From positions 1 to 27,677 of the IMG/VR virus record IMGVR_UViG_3300020044_009142: a stretch of DNA of 27,677 bases; one strand, written 5' to 3'. Of this stretch, positions 29-22,284 are shown in pieces. Made by a program: the position numbers and the translations under genes. Origin of the DNA: a virus. Taxonomy: Duplodnaviria > Caudoviricetes. How positions within the stretch are numbered: the stretch's first letter is position 1; the number at the start of each line of letters is the position of its first letter. The notes under the pieces are model-generated. The model ran no database searches. It saw only the letters and a list, made by a program, of their open reading frames with translations, and was not told the origin of the DNA.

Positions 29-3000
29 GTGATCTGTGGTGGCAGTGATTTGCCAATAACCTCTCTTTGCATATCGAAGCCGGAGAAGTTCTTCCATCCG
101 CTTTCCTTTGCTTGGAGGATTAGAAAAGAAAACAAGATTGGTTATAAGTCAACGTCTTTGGGTGATACCTTTGGGAGTATCGGCGAATTGCTGTGGGACG
201 CAGGCGTTGGTCTTGGGACAATGGTGAAGGTCGGTGTTCAAAATATAACCCAGCAGGATCCAGCGTGGGTATCCTCGCGGCTCTGGCTAGAAAAGGCTAG
301 CGGCAGTATTGTTGATAAAGCAAAAGAAAGAGACATGTTTCAAAAGCAAAAAGAAAAACTTTTAAACAAGTCGAGCGTTGCCGCAACTTCATTTGTAGAA
401 AACGCGATCAAGGCATTCTCTGAAACAGGAGCAATAGTCAATTTGGGCGCAACATGGGCATTGTCTCTTCCATCCAAAATGATGGGAGATGATGTAAAAG
501 CAACTGAGATGGTTGACCTATCCCGCCAGTTTCAAGAACGACTGCAAAAGTCAAACCAAGATGCTGCAATCGGATCCACGCTGGATGCTGTTTTTCAGAC
601 TGCGATTTATGTCCCGGAAATGGCTCGCGTAAAAGCAGAAATGCCAAAGGTTGAATTTGACCAAACCATCAAGCAAACTGGTGCGGCAGGTCAGATTTTC
701 GCAGACCCATTTGAAATGGGTAAGATCACAACAGTGATGAAATTGGCAACAAAACCAATTGTACGTCGTCTCACTCTGAACGCAGAACGAGTCATTGGAA
801 AAGCATCAGAACGTGCAGCGCGACTCGCTGAGATCGGAGTTGAGATCGCAGATGTTGAGCGTGCAAAAAACATGACTCAAAATGCTGCAGAGCTAGCAAA
901 ACGGACTGCCGATGCAGCACGCGAGCGATTTGATTTGACCGGTGACCAGAATCTTCTACGCCGTGCAAATGCAGCAGAGGACATTTTCAACAGAAGCACC
1001 TTGCAGGTAGGTAGATTTACCGACGATGGCATTCGACTCGTAGATGAATCGGCACAAATCGCAGCAGAATCTCAGAAGCTAGCATCGAGGATTCCTGTCG
1101 CAGCCGCCCAGACGTTTGAGGCGGCAGCAAAAGTCGGGCGAGACCTGAAGGCAGTTCCCTTCAAAACCTTCGCGGCAATGGTCGAACCTGTTGGTCGCGG
1201 TCTCGTTACCTTGGATGACGGTCTCGACTCGGTCTCGAAAAAGCTCGGGATCGGTGCTGCATACAACCTGATGACGTCAAAAGTTGGTCAGGCAGTTGGC
1301 TACGGTGCCGCAATCGGCATGGGGCCAATTCCGGCGGCAATCGGCGTAGCAGGAACAGTCCTGAAATCTGGTCCATTTTTGCAACGCCTCGCCGACACGT
1401 CGAGGATCATGGGCACCGAGATGGCAAAGGCCCAGAGCCAGATTCCATTTTTCCAGCGGGTGGCAAATCACTCGTCTATCTCGCCGGCGCACCGATCACT
1501 GGCGCACCTGTCGGACTTGGCAACACTCGGCGGATTCCTGCCTGACATCGCTCGCAGAGGAGTCAAGGGCACAGTCTTATCCTTCCCCGCTGACTTCGCC
1601 GCCCAATACATGTCTGACGGTGGAGAGATCAATCAGGACACTTTCAAACAGGTATTCGCAGAATCTGTGCTGATCGGCGGAAGTTCTGCAGCTCTCGGCG
1701 GGATGTTTGCCGGAACCCGGCAGCGCCACAAAGAACTGGCAGTTGGCGACGAGATCAATTTCCGAAACGAAATTACAGCGCCCGACCAGAAGCGCCTCTT
1801 CACGACGGCACCAGCCGGTGTGCGCCGGGCAGTGGGCACATTCTCTGCCGTGTTCCCATCCGTTAATATCCAATTCACAGAAAGCGGTGGAGGATTCCAC
1901 GACGACAACACAATTGGGATCGACCTGAATTCGTCCAACCCTCTGAAATACCTGCTGGCGCACGAAGTGAAGCACCTGCTAGTCCACCGCAATCAGATGC
2001 ACACGCCAATCGTGGCGATGATGCTCGGCGACGGTGAAGCTGGTGGCATCATGCGCTCGCCAGACGGCACCTTGAACCCAGAATTTGAGGCATTCGCCAG
2101 AGAGTATAACGGTCGCCAAATCTCGGCAGGCCGTGCACCTGTCTCGCTTGGCAAGATCGCCGAGGAATTCTTCGTCGAGGCCGGGGTCGATGACATGGCG
2201 CGAATCGCCGAGTCCGGCGAGCTTGGTGCCATTGCCAGCCGCACCGAGGCACGACGTATGGTCGGTCGGCTTTTCAACTCCATCTTCGACAAGAGCACGG
2301 TGCTGAAGGACTTCCACCTGCGTATCGGTGGTCTAATGGATCAAGGCGGAAAACTTGTCCAAGGAAACGGTCTGCTGGATCCGGGCATCACCCAGACGCA
2401 GGAGATGCGTAACATGACCAAGAACATGCTCAGCAGGGCAGCAGGACGGTCCGTTGGCCAGTTCCAGCCACTTGGTGCGGCAAACGCCGGAAACAAAGGA
2501 GAAGGGCCGGGAATTGACCTTCCTATCAATCCGGGCGACAACGCAATGATCGAGAAGATCGGTCCGGTCGAATTCGAGATGGAAACAGTGAACGGCCAGC
2601 GCCGGGTCGTCCGCGACAGCGCCGGAAACCCAGTCCCAGTTGATTTCAACACTCAGTTGATGCGTTCGCGCACAGGTGCCTTGATCCAAGAAGCAATCGG
2701 TGCTCGCCCATCCACTTACCAGTCTTCGCCCGGCGAGATGCGGATGAATGACGAGGGCATCTGGGAGGGATACCTTCCGCCGGATGTGCTTGAATACATC
2801 AAGCAGAAAGGCTCGCTCAACCAAGAGCAGATTCGGATGATTGAACACGTCAACAAGATGATCAAAAACTTCAAGGGTGACGTCGCGCTTGTGATCAATC
2901 ACCCGGCGACCAGTCGGAACAAGAAGGGCAAGCTCAACTACAAGACGCTGAAGGCAACTCTTAGGCAGGTTGTGCCGATCTCATGGAACCTCACCAAGGA

Positions 3001-6000
3001 CGGCAACCTGACTCTCGGGCTGATGTCTGTCACCCAACTAAAGTCCAACATCGATTCTCGGATCTCGAGCAAGATGGGTCAGAAGCTGTATCAAGGGAAC
3101 CGTGCGAAACTCATGGTCGATATCGGCAAGGTGATGGAGCTGCACCAAAAGGGTCAGCGCACCGACGCCTACTTCGACGCCGAATACGGTGCCGCCAAGA
3201 GTCAGCAACACAAGAACTTCGTCAATTCGGTCTTTGGTCTGATCACCAAAAAGCAGGGCGAGGCAAACCCGATCTTTTCTGAAGAGAACCTTCGCGGCAA
3301 CAGCGTCTACAAAACCTACCGTGCCGACCGGATTAGTCAGGCGACCAAGATGACTGGCGACAAGTATCCGTTTCAATACGACTTCGTCGTCCAGAACATG
3401 ATGCCAAACGGTCTGCCGACACTGGACGATCAAGGTCGCCCGGTCAATCGCCTTCCCGAGCCTGTCGGCGAGAAAGAAGTTGCAATCCCAGCCAGTCAGG
3501 GTAAAGAAGGGCAAGTAACCAATGGACAAACAACCAAAATACAAGCTAAACCCGTCAGCGCAGGCACTGGCGGATCGGAAACCCAAGGAGGAGGACTTCG
3601 AGGACAGGGAGGACTTTCTGGAGGCACTGAGCAGCTTCAACCACTTTATAGCCCCCGTGATTCTGGCATCCCTCTCGAGGGACTCCCAGCAACAGTAAAT
3701 ATCCCCGGATTAGGCCGGGTCACGTTTGGCCCCAATGAAACGGCACGCCAAGTTGCGGCTGATTACGCCACGTCGGTGGGAATCGATTACAACCCACCGA
3801 AGCAATATGCAAAAGTGGACGAAGCTCGGGCGACGAAAATTGCTGCCGAGTATGACAAAATGCCTCATGCTCCGAATGACCCAAAAGTAAAAGCATCATA
3901 TGATGCGATGATCAAAGAGACGCTCGCCCAGTGGGAAGAAATCAAGAAGACCGGTCTTAAGGTAGAAGCTATCCCAGCGGGAGCGCCTAACCCATACGAA
4001 TCAAGCCCAAGGTTGGCAGTAATTGATGTTAATGACAATAACCACCTGTGGTTCTTCCCGACAGAAGAGGGATTCGGAACAGTAGAAACTGCTGACATCG
4101 ACATAAGTGGGAATCCGTTGATGGCACCAACTGGCGAGATACTCAATGGGCACAAGATGCTCGCTAACGACGTGTTCCGAGTCGTGCACGATTATTTCGG
4201 ACACATCAAGGAGGGAGTAGGCTTCCGTGCGGATGGAGAAGAGAATGCATGGAGATCTCACTCTGCCATGTATTCCGATCTTGCTCGCCCGGCAATGACA
4301 GCAGAAACCCGTGGGCAAAATTCGTGGGTGAACTACGGACCATACGGAGAGCACAACCGAAAAGCAAAAGGAGACACGATCTATGCGCCGCAAAAGACAG
4401 GCATTATGCCAGACTGGGTGATGAGCGAAGGTGCAGGTGATATCAACCGCCTGCCTGAGCCAGTCAAGAAAGCCAAGAAGGAAATTGTTGAGCAGGAAGA
4501 CAAAGGAATCCAAGCACCAGTAGGAGCACTTGGAGAACTCAGAAGCAATGTGGAGATCAAAAGGATCAATCTTCCAGCAGATGCCTCAAGCGTTCCTAAA
4601 TTTGTGGCAAGAGAGAACAAGGACAGCGATTGGAAGGTGATGGAAGGACCACTTAGAATTGCCAGAGGCAACTATTTTACACCACTTCCAAACATTAAAA
4701 TCAAAAAGACTGGTGAGTTTTCAGTTCAAAATCAAAACCTAGTTCAGAATGCATTCTTGGCAAAATCCCCAACTCCAACCGACAAAAATGGGTTGCCAGA
4801 CCCGAAGGGGTTGAGAGAGCAACAGAATGCAATTCGCAATACCAATGACTCACTGGAGAAAATTGGCCTAGCTGTAAAAGACATCGAAGCTGATCCTCAA
4901 AAATTTGTGGATCCAAAAGGATACGCTGAGACAATGAAGAAAGCTGGAGTCACTGGAGACGTATTGATTCCACCATCGTCATTAAGGATGATGCTGGAGG
5001 ATCCAGATGCTTTCACCGCGCTTTTGAGTGGTGGCTATCACGGTGATAAGACGGTTGATGGCATTCGTGAAGCAGCGATGTCTGGTCTTGATTCTGTTGT
5101 CGAGATGCGGAAGTTGATTGGTGGTCGTCCTCCAGATATAGTCACTGCGATTCACCACTTGTGGGGAACTCTTTCCAAGCAACTTCCACCGCTTCAACAA
5201 GAGGCACTTTGGATGCGTATGATCACCAACAAAGAGGTGATGCAACAAATCGGTGAATCCATCAATGGAACATTTGCTCAGTCTCCAGCCCAGTGGAAGG
5301 ACACCGTAAAAAAAGCAAGGATTAACACTGCAGGCAATTACGGTAAGCTCGGTAATAACGCAACGGCAAATGCCAATAGCTTCTACTTGATGCTTTACAG
5401 GCACAATGGCAAATGGGGCGAGGTTTCGGATGTTTACAAGAACGACGACGCGGTCCAAATGCGTTATGATTTCAACACCTTGGGTCATGGAGCTACTGGA
5501 ATCAAAAACAAGGTTCAGAGCTTCATTGGGTTGACGTTCGGAATCAAAGGGAACGTTCTGGATCGGTGGAGATTTGTTGACATGTATCTTGCTGATGCGA
5601 TGAAAATCACTGGAGCAAAAACTGCTCGAGACTACTTCAAATATGAAGGTAAAGGCAAAAATGTTCCTGTAGACAAAATCGGAATCTACAAAAACTACGG
5701 AACTATCGAGAACAAATCTCCGTTATTTAGTCTGGCATTGTATTCCGCAATGGATCGAGTATCTCAGGCAGCAATCAATGCATCACCATCACTCCAAACA
5801 CTTCTTGGCAATCATGCTGATCCCGGTGGATTGCACTGGCTTTCTTGGAACGCTATCAAAAATGAAGCGGTCGGTCATTCTTCACTCGACATCACAAAGA
5901 ACTTCATCAAGGATTATGCGCCAGAAGGAAAGTATGACAATTTGACAGTTGATAATTTCTTGAAATTTGTAAATTCAACTGAAGCATTTGTTGAAGGAAC

Positions 6001-6070
6001 ATCTGGGGGCGGAGAAGAAATAACTCGCCTGACCTTGAAAAATGGAATATTTAACTATACGAAAAAATGA
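29..6070 (+). CDS. Giant modular (polyvalent-type) virion/DNA-ejection protein; 5' end uncertain, probably truncated
   Basis: 2013-aa ORF. Ala-rich helical N-half with hydrophobic Gly/Ala stretches, HEVKH zincin motif (1961-1975), two NRLPEPV repeats (3446-3466, 4445-4465), an HDYFGH module and a C-terminal HhH-like module. Lies directly upstream of the packaging genes. The first ~120 nt look like inverted coding sequence, so the GTG at 29 is doubtful. Confidence 0.75.
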   Translation: MICGGSDLPITSLCISKPEKFFHPLSFAWRIRKENKIGYKSTSLGDTFGSIGELLWDAGVGLGTMVKVGVQNITQQDPAWVSSRLWLEKASGSIVDKAKERDMFQKQKEKLLNKSSVAATSFVENAIKAFSETGAIVNLGATWALSLPSKMMGDDVKATEMVDLSRQFQERLQKSNQDAAIGSTLDAVFQTAIYVPEMARVKAEMPKVEFDQTIKQTGAAGQIFADPFEMGKITTVMKLATKPIVRRLTLNAERVIGKASERAARLAEIGVEIADVERAKNMTQNAAELAKRTADAARERFDLTGDQNLLRRANAAEDIFNRSTLQVGRFTDDGIRLVDESAQIAAESQKLASRIPVAAAQTFEAAAKVGRDLKAVPFKTFAAMVEPVGRGLVTLDDGLDSVSKKLGIGAAYNLMTSKVGQAVGYGAAIGMGPIPAAIGVAGTVLKSGPFLQRLADTSRIMGTEMAKAQSQIPFFQRVANHSSISPAHRSLAHLSDLATLGGFLPDIARRGVKGTVLSFPADFAAQYMSDGGEINQDTFKQVFAESVLIGGSSAALGGMFAGTRQRHKELAVGDEINFRNEITAPDQKRLFTTAPAGVRRAVGTFSAVFPSVNIQFTESGGGFHDDNTIGIDLNSSNPLKYLLAHEVKHLLVHRNQMHTPIVAMMLGDGEAGGIMRSPDGTLNPEFEAFAREYNGRQISAGRAPVSLGKIAEEFFVEAGVDDMARIAESGELGAIASRTEARRMVGRLFNSIFDKSTVLKDFHLRIGGLMDQGGKLVQGNGLLDPGITQTQEMRNMTKNMLSRAAGRSVGQFQPLGAANAGNKGEGPGIDLPINPGDNAMIEKIGPVEFEMETVNGQRRVVRDSAGNPVPVDFNTQLMRSRTGALIQEAIGARPSTYQSSPGEMRMNDEGIWEGYLPPDVLEYIKQKGSLNQEQIRMIEHVNKMIKNFKGDVALVINHPATSRNKKGKLNYKTLKATLRQVVPISWNLTKDGNLTLGLMSVTQLKSNIDSRISSKMGQKLYQGNRAKLMVDIGKVMELHQKGQRTDAYFDAEYGAAKSQQHKNFVNSVFGLITKKQGEANPIFSEENLRGNSVYKTYRADRISQATKMTGDKYPFQYDFVVQNMMPNGLPTLDDQGRPVNRLPEPVGEKEVAIPASQGKEGQVTNGQTTKIQAKPVSAGTGGSETQGGGLRGQGGLSGGTEQLQPLYSPRDSGIPLEGLPATVNIPGLGRVTFGPNETARQVAADYATSVGIDYNPPKQYAKVDEARATKIAAEYDKMPHAPNDPKVKASYDAMIKETLAQWEEIKKTGLKVEAIPAGAPNPYESSPRLAVIDVNDNNHLWFFPTEEGFGTVETADIDISGNPLMAPTGEILNGHKMLANDVFRVVHDYFGHIKEGVGFRADGEENAWRSHSAMYSDLARPAMTAETRGQNSWVNYGPYGEHNRKAKGDTIYAPQKTGIMPDWVMSEGAGDINRLPEPVKKAKKEIVEQEDKGIQAPVGALGELRSNVEIKRINLPADASSVPKFVARENKDSDWKVMEGPLRIARGNYFTPLPNIKIKKTGEFSVQNQNLVQNAFLAKSPTPTDKNGLPDPKGLREQQNAIRNTNDSLEKIGLAVKDIEADPQKFVDPKGYAETMKKAGVTGDVLIPPSSLRMMLEDPDAFTALLSGGYHGDKTVDGIREAAMSGLDSVVEMRKLIGGRPPDIVTAIHHLWGTLSKQLPPLQQEALWMRMITNKEVMQQIGESINGTFAQSPAQWKDTVKKARINTAGNYGKLGNNATANANSFYLMLYRHNGKWGEVSDVYKNDDAVQMRYDFNTLGHGATGIKNKVQSFIGLTFGIKGNVLDRWRFVDMYLADAMKITGAKTARDYFKYEGKGKNVPVDKIGIYKNYGTIENKSPLFSLALYSAMDRVSQAAINASPSLQTLLGNHADPGGLHWLSWNAIKNEAVGHSSLDITKNFIKDYAPEGKYDNLTVDNFLKFVNSTEAFVEGTSGGGEEITRLTLKNGIFNYTKK
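3522..3698 (+). CDS. Putative nested +1-frame small protein (58 aa, MDKQPKYKLNPSAQALADRKPKEEDFEDREDFLEALSSFNHFIAPVILASLSRDSQQQ)
   Basis: ATG 3522 to TAA 3696-3698, below the ORF-track cut-off. The host frame here is a low-complexity G/T/Q linker while the +1 frame reads as a helical, charged protein. The start context AACCAATGGACA is identical to that of the - strand gene starting at 22284. Confidence 0.55.
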   Translation: MDKQPKYKLNPSAQALADRKPKEEDFEDREDFLEALSSFNHFIAPVILASLSRDSQQQ

Positions 6071-16421: not shown

Positions 16422-16600
16422 TGATACCTTCATCAGTGAGAGATTTGATGTATGCTTTTTGCGGAACAGCTGCGCCAATAGTCGCAGTGATCACGTCATA
16501 CCAAGAGCAAATCGAGTACAACATGAGAATTGCATCGATGGTAATAGGCATGCTTGCCAGTATCATTTACTGCATCAGTCTATTGCGAAAAATCAAATGA
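16418..16600 (+). CDS. Small membrane protein, holin-like
   Basis: 60 aa, two hydrophobic segments and a basic C-terminus (RKIK); MM double start; ATGA-coupled on both sides. Confidence 0.65.
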   Translation: MMIPSSVRDLMYAFCGTAAPIVAVITSYQEQIEYNMRIASMVIGMLASIIYCISLLRKIK

Positions 16601-17070: not shown

Positions 17071-18358
17071 CAATCGCCCGGTGGAAACTCGTCGCCTGCG
17101 GTGACACGCAAACTCCGGAGAACCAGTCTTTGAGCAGCAACCCCTGCAGGGATTTCACCCGCGACACTGCGACGTATGCCTGACCAGGTTCCCGGGCTGC
17201 GCGGATGTCGATCAGCGCCGACTCAAGCGTCAGTCCCTGCGACTTATGGATCGTGGCTGCCCACGCCAACCGCAGTGGGAACTGCCGAAACTCAGCGGTG
17301 CCTTTTTGCGACGGGTCGAATTTCCACGTGTTTATTTTGATTTCGATCACCTTTCCGGCATCCAACAGCAAAGATACGCAGTTTTTCTGCACATCTACCA
17401 CGGTGCCGATCTCGCCATTGGCTGCCAGCATCCCGTCTGGGTCGTCAGGATCCCGCAGGTTTGCCGTGACCATCGCCCGGGCATTGACCTTCAGCAGCAG
17501 GCGCTCAGGCGTGATCAGGTTCTTCTTGAGAAACTCGACGTCGTATTTATTGCCGCTGGTTTCGGCCACCAGCACGTGCTCAGGCGTCTCGAGCGTCCCA
17601 AGCTGATACGTGTTCCACTTATCGACCTGCACGTTGTGGGTGAACAGTCTGAGGACGTTTGCAGGGGGGAACAGTGCGACCCTCTTCTTGAGGATTGAAG
17701 CACCATCCTTGGTCACAGTTCCTTCCCGAAACTGGTTGAGAACAGAGATGAAGTCTGGGTCGTCCTGACGGTGGATTTGCCGCAGCGTGACGTGCCGGAA
17801 GTCGATGCCTCGCCACGAATCGCAGGCAAACGCCCAGTCATACAATCCGCTTTTGCTGACCGGGGGAAGCTGCAAGAAGTCTCCGACCGCAATCACTTGG
17901 ATCCCTCCCATTGGTCGGTCGTCACCTCGGACCTGCCGGCAAACGTAATCCACGAAATTGAGGATCTTGCCCGGCAACATCGAGACCTCGTCGATGATCA
18001 GGATCTGGGTGCCGCGAATGCGTCCCATAGTCGCCTGCCAGTGCAGACCCTGCGACTGCATGTGCCGAAAGTAGTCCTCGAATGACTGACCATCTTTCGG
18101 ACCGATGCCGATGCCTGCCCAGCGGTAAACCGTCGAGGTGTTGACGTCCTCGCCGAACATCGACGACAGCTTGTCGCGCAGGTTGAGCGCCGCCACCCCG
18201 GTTGTCGCGCATACCTTCAGCGACCGGGCACCGAGGCGTCGGCGGATGATCTCGACGGTAACCGAGGACTTCCCAGTGCCCGCCGGACCAGTGATGAACA
18301 CCGAGTGCCCTTCGTTCACCTTGCCAATGGCAAGCAATTGATCTTGGTCGAATTTCAT
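17060..18358 (-). CDS. Pif1/RecD-like SF1B DNA helicase
   Basis: GPAGTGKS, ATTGVAA, IIDEVSM, GDFLQLPPV, RQDDPDFISVLNQFREG, QFPLRLAWAATIHKSQGLTL and GQAYVAVSR motifs. Confidence 0.92.
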   Translation of the reverse strand: MKFDQDQLLAIGKVNEGHSVFITGPAGTGKSSVTVEIIRRRLGARSLKVCATTGVAALNLRDKLSSMFGEDVNTSTVYRWAGIGIGPKDGQSFEDYFRHMQSQGLHWQATMGRIRGTQILIIDEVSMLPGKILNFVDYVCRQVRGDDRPMGGIQVIAVGDFLQLPPVSKSGLYDWAFACDSWRGIDFRHVTLRQIHRQDDPDFISVLNQFREGTVTKDGASILKKRVALFPPANVLRLFTHNVQVDKWNTYQLGTLETPEHVLVAETSGNKYDVEFLKKNLITPERLLLKVNARAMVTANLRDPDDPDGMLAANGEIGTVVDVQKNCVSLLLDAGKVIEIKINTWKFDPSQKGTAEFRQFPLRLAWAATIHKSQGLTLESALIDIRAAREPGQAYVAVSRVKSLQGLLLKDWFSGVCVSPQATSFHRAIARQ

Positions 18359-22036: not shown

Positions 22037-22284
22037 GCGTCGAGGAAATTGCGGATGGTTTGGATGTAAGTGCGGATGTCGCGGATGTTCTGCGAGATTT
22101 CCTCGCGCTCCTCGACGGCTTTTTGCCATGCACCGGGGACGACGTAGTAATCGCGGGCATTGAACTCGATGTATTCCCACTTGTCGATGAAGTCGTAAAG
22201 AGCGTAGGCGGCGGCTTGGTAATCTTCTTGAAGAGATCTATGGCTGGTGCCGTTGGAGTGAATGGTTGGCAGTGTGATGTCCAT
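22033..22284 (-). CDS. Hypothetical protein, first gene of the leftward operon
   Basis: 83 aa (PTIHSNGT...FNARDYY) with an A/C-rich leader. Confidence 0.75.
   Translation of the reverse strand: MDITLPTIHSNGTSHRSLQEDYQAAAYALYDFIDKWEYIEFNARDYYVVPGAWQKAVEEREEISQNIRDIRTYIQTIRNFLDA

Follow-up and report, generated by a model that had tools for sequence, protein, structure and literature searches.

In bacteriophage lambda, the embedded spanin pair Rz/Rz1 consists of a small gene lying wholly within a larger gene in its +1 frame, the product of the small gene binding that of the larger one. Polyvalent proteins of phages and conjugative elements are described in passages of Iyer et al. (2017, PMC5512222) as very large, multi-module polypeptides, and section 8 of that paper mentions HEXXXH zincin-like metallopeptidases (MPTase). 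In the MuF polymorphic toxin-immunity pairs of temperate phages, as treated in passages of Jamet et al. (2017, PMC5576092), a small adjacent gene was proposed to neutralise the toxin. The locus analysed here, in which a 58-aa gene is nested in the linker that precedes an enzyme-like domain of a giant phage protein, resembles each of these systems in part.

The window, i.e., the whole stretch of DNA that was analysed, corresponds to a linear virus record that is 27,677 bases long and an estimated 73% complete. Its genes include those for the small and large terminase, a portal-like protein, an SU10-type capsid protein, and a tail protein, as well as a CHAP endolysin (at 16459), a PIF1-like helicase, RusA, and a primase; the coordinates of the features discussed below are collected in Table 1. 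The giant gene bears the marks of a polyvalent gene, namely several disparate domains in one large polypeptide, virion genes nearby, and shuffled modules, and judging from this gene context its product may be packaged and injected. A Pfam search of the giant ORF returned zero matches, and its sole family match was to phrog_3170 (unknown function) at aa 1232–1437, which is the HDxxGH domain; the other modules of the protein had no family match. The N-terminal half contains an HEVKH zincin-type motif (window 1961–1975, aa 645–649), and a C-terminal module (window 4700–6067) with HHLWG, DRWRF, and HWLSW motifs is common to three relatives (L004, L005, and L010), replaced in others, and likewise without a family match. 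In the giant protein, NRLPEPV is found repeatedly at module junctions, where relatives have RFMPE or RYMPE; the pair of copies was not among the output of the DNA repeat finder. The closest bacterial-genome match of the HDxxGH domain came from an Akkermansiaceae bin (63% identity), which is a weak hint as to the host.

Table 1 Features of the nested gene, its giant host gene, and the adjoining domain, in positions of the window
Feature	Position	Strand	Remarks
Giant polyvalent-type gene	29..6070	+	2013 codons, first ATG at 221; followed directly by terminase, portal-like, and capsid genes
NRLPEPV peptide, first copy	3446..3466	+	Before the cassette; likely module junction; seen by eye
Main-frame linker	3467..3673	+	G/Q/T-rich; unconstrained read-through of the nested gene
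Nested-gene start region	3504..3524	+	Weak purine tract AAGAAGG (3504–3510); AACCA-ATG context like other starts in the phage
Nested +1-frame gene	3522..3698	+	58 aa, ATG 3522 to TAA 3698
HDxxGH domain	3674..4447	+	aa 1216–1473; phrog_3170; predicted binding partner of the small protein
HDYFGH motif	4187..4204	+	aa 1387–1392; H, D, H invariant, also downstream E, H, E, R, Q, N
NRLPEPV peptide, second copy	4445..4465	+	After the domain; relatives change downstream modules near such a motif

The features that the initial annotation had read at this spot were all recovered: a +1-frame ORF running from ATG to TAA whose peptide includes EEDFEDREDFLEALSSF, an unusual main-frame linker (GTGGSETQGGGLRGQGGLSGGT) overlain by that ORF inside the open frame of the giant gene, a start context (AACCAATGGACA) common to position 3517 (+) and the start of the gene at 22284 (−), and an AAGAAGG tract ending 11 nt 5' of the ATG. 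The tract is weak (−4.2 kcal/mol against the anti-Shine-Dalgarno sequence), and most genes of the phage are without a Shine-Dalgarno (SD) sequence, having instead A-rich starts, often with ACC shortly 5' of the ATG (6222, 8633, 12089, 13122, 13950, 22529). The core of the 58-aa family is P-x(3)-[DN][FY]-x(4)-E-x-[FY]-x-E-A-x(3)-[FW]; helices are predicted at residues 11–17 and 27–56 of the present protein, and its model, computed with no alignment, has a short helix connected by a loop to a long one (pLDDT 74.5). When the codons of the giant gene were shuffled synonymously 1000 times, 98% of the outcomes contained one or more +1 ATG ORFs of at least 58 aa (mean 2.95, observed 1), and within the window the length of the ORF alone is at chance level; the comparative evidence is far beyond chance.

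Among 80 viral loci retrieved via the downstream domain, many carried a +1 ORF with a common motif over a variable, open linker. In an ungapped alignment of eight close relatives, anchored on the stop codon, dN/dS over the core (aa 8–45) was 0.11 in the +1 frame versus 1.59 in the main frame; variable bases fell mostly on +1 third positions (8/10/26), and in the downstream control they fell mostly on main-frame third positions (14/17/54), with a Fisher P of 5e-7. Three further clades of the same motif class (type 1), compared over windows anchored on the +1 motif, gave +1/main values of 0.21/2.34, 0.15/1.95, and 0.12/1.51, these estimates being pooled pairwise values of related sequences. The four clades together range from 0.11 to 0.21 in the +1 frame and from 1.5 to 2.3 in the main-frame linker, which bears out the earlier claim that the +1 frame is the constrained one; the main-frame values above 1 do not signify positive selection, since selection on the other frame casts an expected shadow of this kind. 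Accumulation of +1 stops or loss of the ATG, which the initial annotation had named as contrary evidence, was not seen: the compared clades are free of +1 stops, and an ATG within 40 codons is kept in all 36 nested representatives that could be anchored (out of 41, the other five not being anchorable). An SD-like signal was present at the nearest ATG in 56% of these 36 representatives versus 16% of 314 control ATGs. Of 536 candidates in a profile search, 54 proved to be homologues that had been called separately. Purifying selection in the alternative frame, a conserved start, and an enriched initiation signal, all read from sequence comparison, argue that the nested gene is almost certainly real. 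The term "overprinted", which had been applied to it, is doubtful in the sense of de novo birth inside the giant gene, as free-standing and un-nested homologues exist; the linker may therefore instead be read-through of an older small gene.

A set of loci, obtained by searching viral contigs with the small-protein homologues alone, held 64 loci with 38 distinct peptides, some contigs being included twice. The HDxxGH domain was directly downstream in 63 of the 64, always one frame away, and the main frame was continuous into the domain in 62, with an intervening stop in L143. Fewer than 100 main-frame codons lay upstream in nine of the 63 loci, the contig end not being reached, and therefore the cassette also sits near gene starts. 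Up- and downstream modules varied even among close relatives while the nested gene stayed with the domain. When 1042 nested ATG ORFs from 141 dereplicated loci were scanned without bias, the only two families that exceeded the main frame in identity both sat just before the HDxxGH domain, and 11 families did not exceed it. The converse association was weaker, type 1 being found in 32 of 97 domain-retrieved representatives with a profile partly trained on these loci. Among 107 domain representatives (80% identity), type 1 accounted for 42, one of three other motif types for 22, and other +1 ORFs for 3, the non-type-1 labels having been set by eye and the accompanying tree being a quick one with weak support; a recognisable nested partner directly upstream was absent from the remaining 40, including the close relatives L016 and L151. 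These 40 domains retain all of the invariant H/D/E/R/Q/N residues, which is the main evidence against an obligatory immunity role: in an effector-immunity pair a partner would be expected wherever the effector is intact. It follows that the partner is either not universally needed or lies beyond the 2–3 kb flanks.

Complex prediction for the small protein and the HDxxGH domain passed with an ipSAE of 0.82, the best of three controls scoring 0.00, and the runs gave 0.82, 0.86, and 0.73 with contact agreement of at least 74% and partner pLDDT of at least 69. The mark applied is reached by 116 of 157 solved pairs and 2 of 215 mismatched pairs, counts that are approximate here, where our own alignments were used. 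Predicted contacts join E34, A35, S37, F38, and F41 of the partner with Y108, P112, R113, N165, R169, G183–R185, E189, and Q215 of the domain; the contacted domain residues are invariant among representatives, and the invariant E34 and A35 of the partner, together with its aromatic residue 38, touch the invariant Y108-P112-R113 loop and G183-F184-R185. Residues H172, D173, H177, H196, and E211 of the domain are absent from the listed contacts. The invariance of the contacted residues suggests that the small protein could block an active site. The passing prediction and the co-occurrence at 63 of 64 loci support the earlier proposal that the small protein is a partner of the domain, and on the strength of the models the two probably bind.

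The model of the HDxxGH domain itself was confident (pLDDT 91, pTM 0.91). Its structural matches were other phage proteins, some named polyvalent and some of mycobacteriophages; there was no significant match among solved structures and none to the Pfam LPD or MPTase families. The domain occurs in roughly 1400 stored viral stretches (an estimate), in cluster C mycobacteriophages, and in bacteria. Its H-x4-H and downstream glutamates recall the HEXXXH metallopeptidases mentioned in section 8 of PMC5512222, but Asp stands in place of the catalytic Glu of HEXXH/HEXXXH in all representatives (HDYFGH) and zincin fold comparisons gave scores at noise level; the large number of additional invariant polar residues suggests a different chemistry. 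Where the domain stands alone in bacteria (Enterovibrio, BD1-7 clade; L191:1784–4120, L192, L189:1744–4215), it comes after an adenosylhomocysteinase-like gene and lies ahead of DUF3293 or seems to be fused to it, a setting that hints at chemistry on nucleosides or SAM/SAH. Weak structural matches at ranks 21–36 were small uncharacterised proteins of Pseudomonas, Vibrio, Acinetobacter, and Caulobacter phages (e.g., LKA1 Q0E607), which are perhaps a minimal free form of the domain. In L085, some 550 nt of in-frame extra sequence splits the domain near model position 213, and L306 is similar near position 130; both insertions are possibly inteins.

Ten metagenome loci, each with a limited flank, comprised five with the gene nested before the domain, four with free-standing copies, and one weak match. 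No domain was found in the available flank of the free-standing copies (L202; L203, which is frameshifted and near an integrase; L205 and L206, which have one peptide), and the L206 orphan (2956–3138) has a type IV restriction-like HNH gene on one side and an HIT-HNH gene on the other. In Paraburkholderia sediminicola the pair is un-nested, the small gene being followed by a stand-alone domain gene. Twelve longer proteins (126–433 aa) contain the module, mostly at one end and mostly of the L206 subfamily. This subfamily (P0056–P0066; L206:2956–3138) begins W-x-DVP-x-EIKKRFP and is joined to varied unknown proteins, five of them with a common C-terminal part ending CPxC; it had no match in Pfam or PADLOC and is possibly a module that was captured as a sensor or an inhibitor.

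Among six annotated phage records, type 1 was present unannotated in two (MinM2, 30 bits; MW202675, 75 bits), a type 2 ORF in one, and neither in three; the matches of Pag-Yong1 and Pra-JY27 had the same length and score as that of MinM2. In GenBank, cyanophage MinM2 and MW202675 have the large gene alone annotated over the spot, and such nested genes are thus being overlooked by annotation; in MinM2 the nested ORF runs from 18098 to 18307 of OQ594354.1. Types 1–4 are motif classes at the same position, the common descent of the other types with type 1 being unproven. The nested ORFs of type 3 gave a dN/dS of 0.16 in the +1 frame versus 1.13 in the main frame, and those of type 4 gave 0.31 versus 0.95, with the domain downstream in 10 of the 10 loci returned by a type 4 query. 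Different +1 ORFs, encoding an acidic helix followed by basic residues, lie at the same spot in other domain clades (L020–L040; L046/47/53/155/237/254/257/259/288/291; L149/168–170/174–176/178/179/182/184/195), and L200 has an unrelated-looking +1 peptide. A recurring +1 ORF type (around KQARLLQK) that was not recovered by the unbiased scan lies 100–400 nt before the domain in L054, L056, L060, and L073.

Given these patterns, we lean towards the reading that the product of the nested gene is a binder of the adjoining HDxxGH domain and likely its dedicated inhibitor, that is, an immunity or latency factor. Predicted binding alone does not show inhibition. In the proposed mechanism, the giant protein would be packaged and then injected; the small protein, made from the same late mRNA through internal initiation, would keep the domain silent inside the producing cell and would be left behind or released, upon which the domain would act in the next host. 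Nesting would render domain and partner swappable as one in-frame cassette into any position of a polyvalent gene, and owing to its nested position the partner would stay with the domain during module shuffling into a continuous reading frame.

That the ORF is a by-product of the G-rich linker and not a gene is scarcely credible: such ORFs are common by chance, but the frame-specific dN/dS, the codon-position pattern, the SD enrichment, and the 54 separately called homologues contradict this reading. The +1 ORF might otherwise be a recoding device, in which a frameshift or re-initiation at its end would produce the domain either in a free form or as part of a short fusion, and the +1 stop does lie near the domain start in most loci. 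Of the 41 representatives, nevertheless, one has a slippery heptamer and six have a main-frame start codon close to the stop, the stops are scattered from −137 to +52 and are often created by the main-frame LxGLP.TV motif, and the amino acids of the +1 product are themselves conserved, which together leave recoding very improbable.

A real nested gene could also have a function unrelated to the domain and hitch-hike in the same linker by common descent. Clustering in a tree can come from physical linkage alone, and orphan copies exist; we hold this to be quite improbable, however, as the gene stays with the domain despite differing flanking modules, is also found in an un-nested pair, and passed complex prediction against three controls. 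Binding may instead serve an end other than inhibition, the small protein acting as a folding chaperone, an activator, or a packaging adaptor. Co-occurrence and the predicted complex are silent on the sign of the effect, the putative metal ligands lie outside the listed contacts, and the partner-less domains look intact, all of which are compatible with such a role. The domain alone is, on the other hand, predicted to fold confidently (pLDDT 91), and orphan and fused copies without a nearby domain, one of them in a defence-like neighbourhood, suit an inhibitor or a sensor better, so that we regard a chaperone, activator, or adaptor as rather unlikely.

Returning to the inhibitor reading, we put forward tentatively, as a generalization that may well be too broad, that the effector domains which phage polyvalent proteins deliver by injection sit in complete cassettes, each with its immunity gene concealed in another frame of the linker ahead of the domain; in the present case an enzyme without a solved relative would have several alternative nested inhibitors, and the orphans and fusions would be binding modules that bacteria captured in order to sense the domain, or neutralise it, once injected. 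Should the genes nested in linkers prove to be cognate inhibitors, this would explain how disparate enzymes can be held in one phage polypeptide and shuffled without harm to the producer, and enzyme and partner would travel as one hidden cassette. In that case the nested genes would also serve as a convenient reagent with which to clone and assay an enzyme-like domain that has no solved relative, and the cultured phage MinM2 renders the idea testable.

Like Rz1, the 58-aa gene lies entirely within its host gene in the +1 frame, and binding between the two gene products is predicted. Unlike in the Rz/Rz1 pair, the small protein is a soluble acidic helix in which inspection by eye showed neither lipoprotein nor membrane features, the gene lies far from the endolysin gene and outside a lysis cassette, it travels together with a shuffled domain as one cassette, and the host frame over it is unconstrained. 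The giant protein agrees with the polyvalent proteins in the passages of PMC5512222 in being very large and multi-module, in lying beside virion genes, and in having an HExxH motif (HEVKH); moreover, structural matches of the domain include proteins named polyvalent, and one cultured phage annotates the domain so. It differs in its out-of-frame partner gene, of which those passages describe none; the word "overlap" has 0 occurrences in the main text of that paper, and we found no description of such nested partner genes in the literature that we searched. With the MuF pairs, as far as the passages of PMC5576092 describe them, the locus shares a phage-borne enzyme-like domain and a small adjacent gene as its proposed neutraliser, whereas here there is no MuF domain, the giant gene precedes the terminase genes instead of following the portal gene, the small gene is nested and upstream and not directly downstream of a toxin gene, and the domain is internal and not C-terminal. 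Same-strand nested genes and phage toxin-immunity pairs are thus already known, and the present case, which lacks the defining features of each, works like a blend of them.
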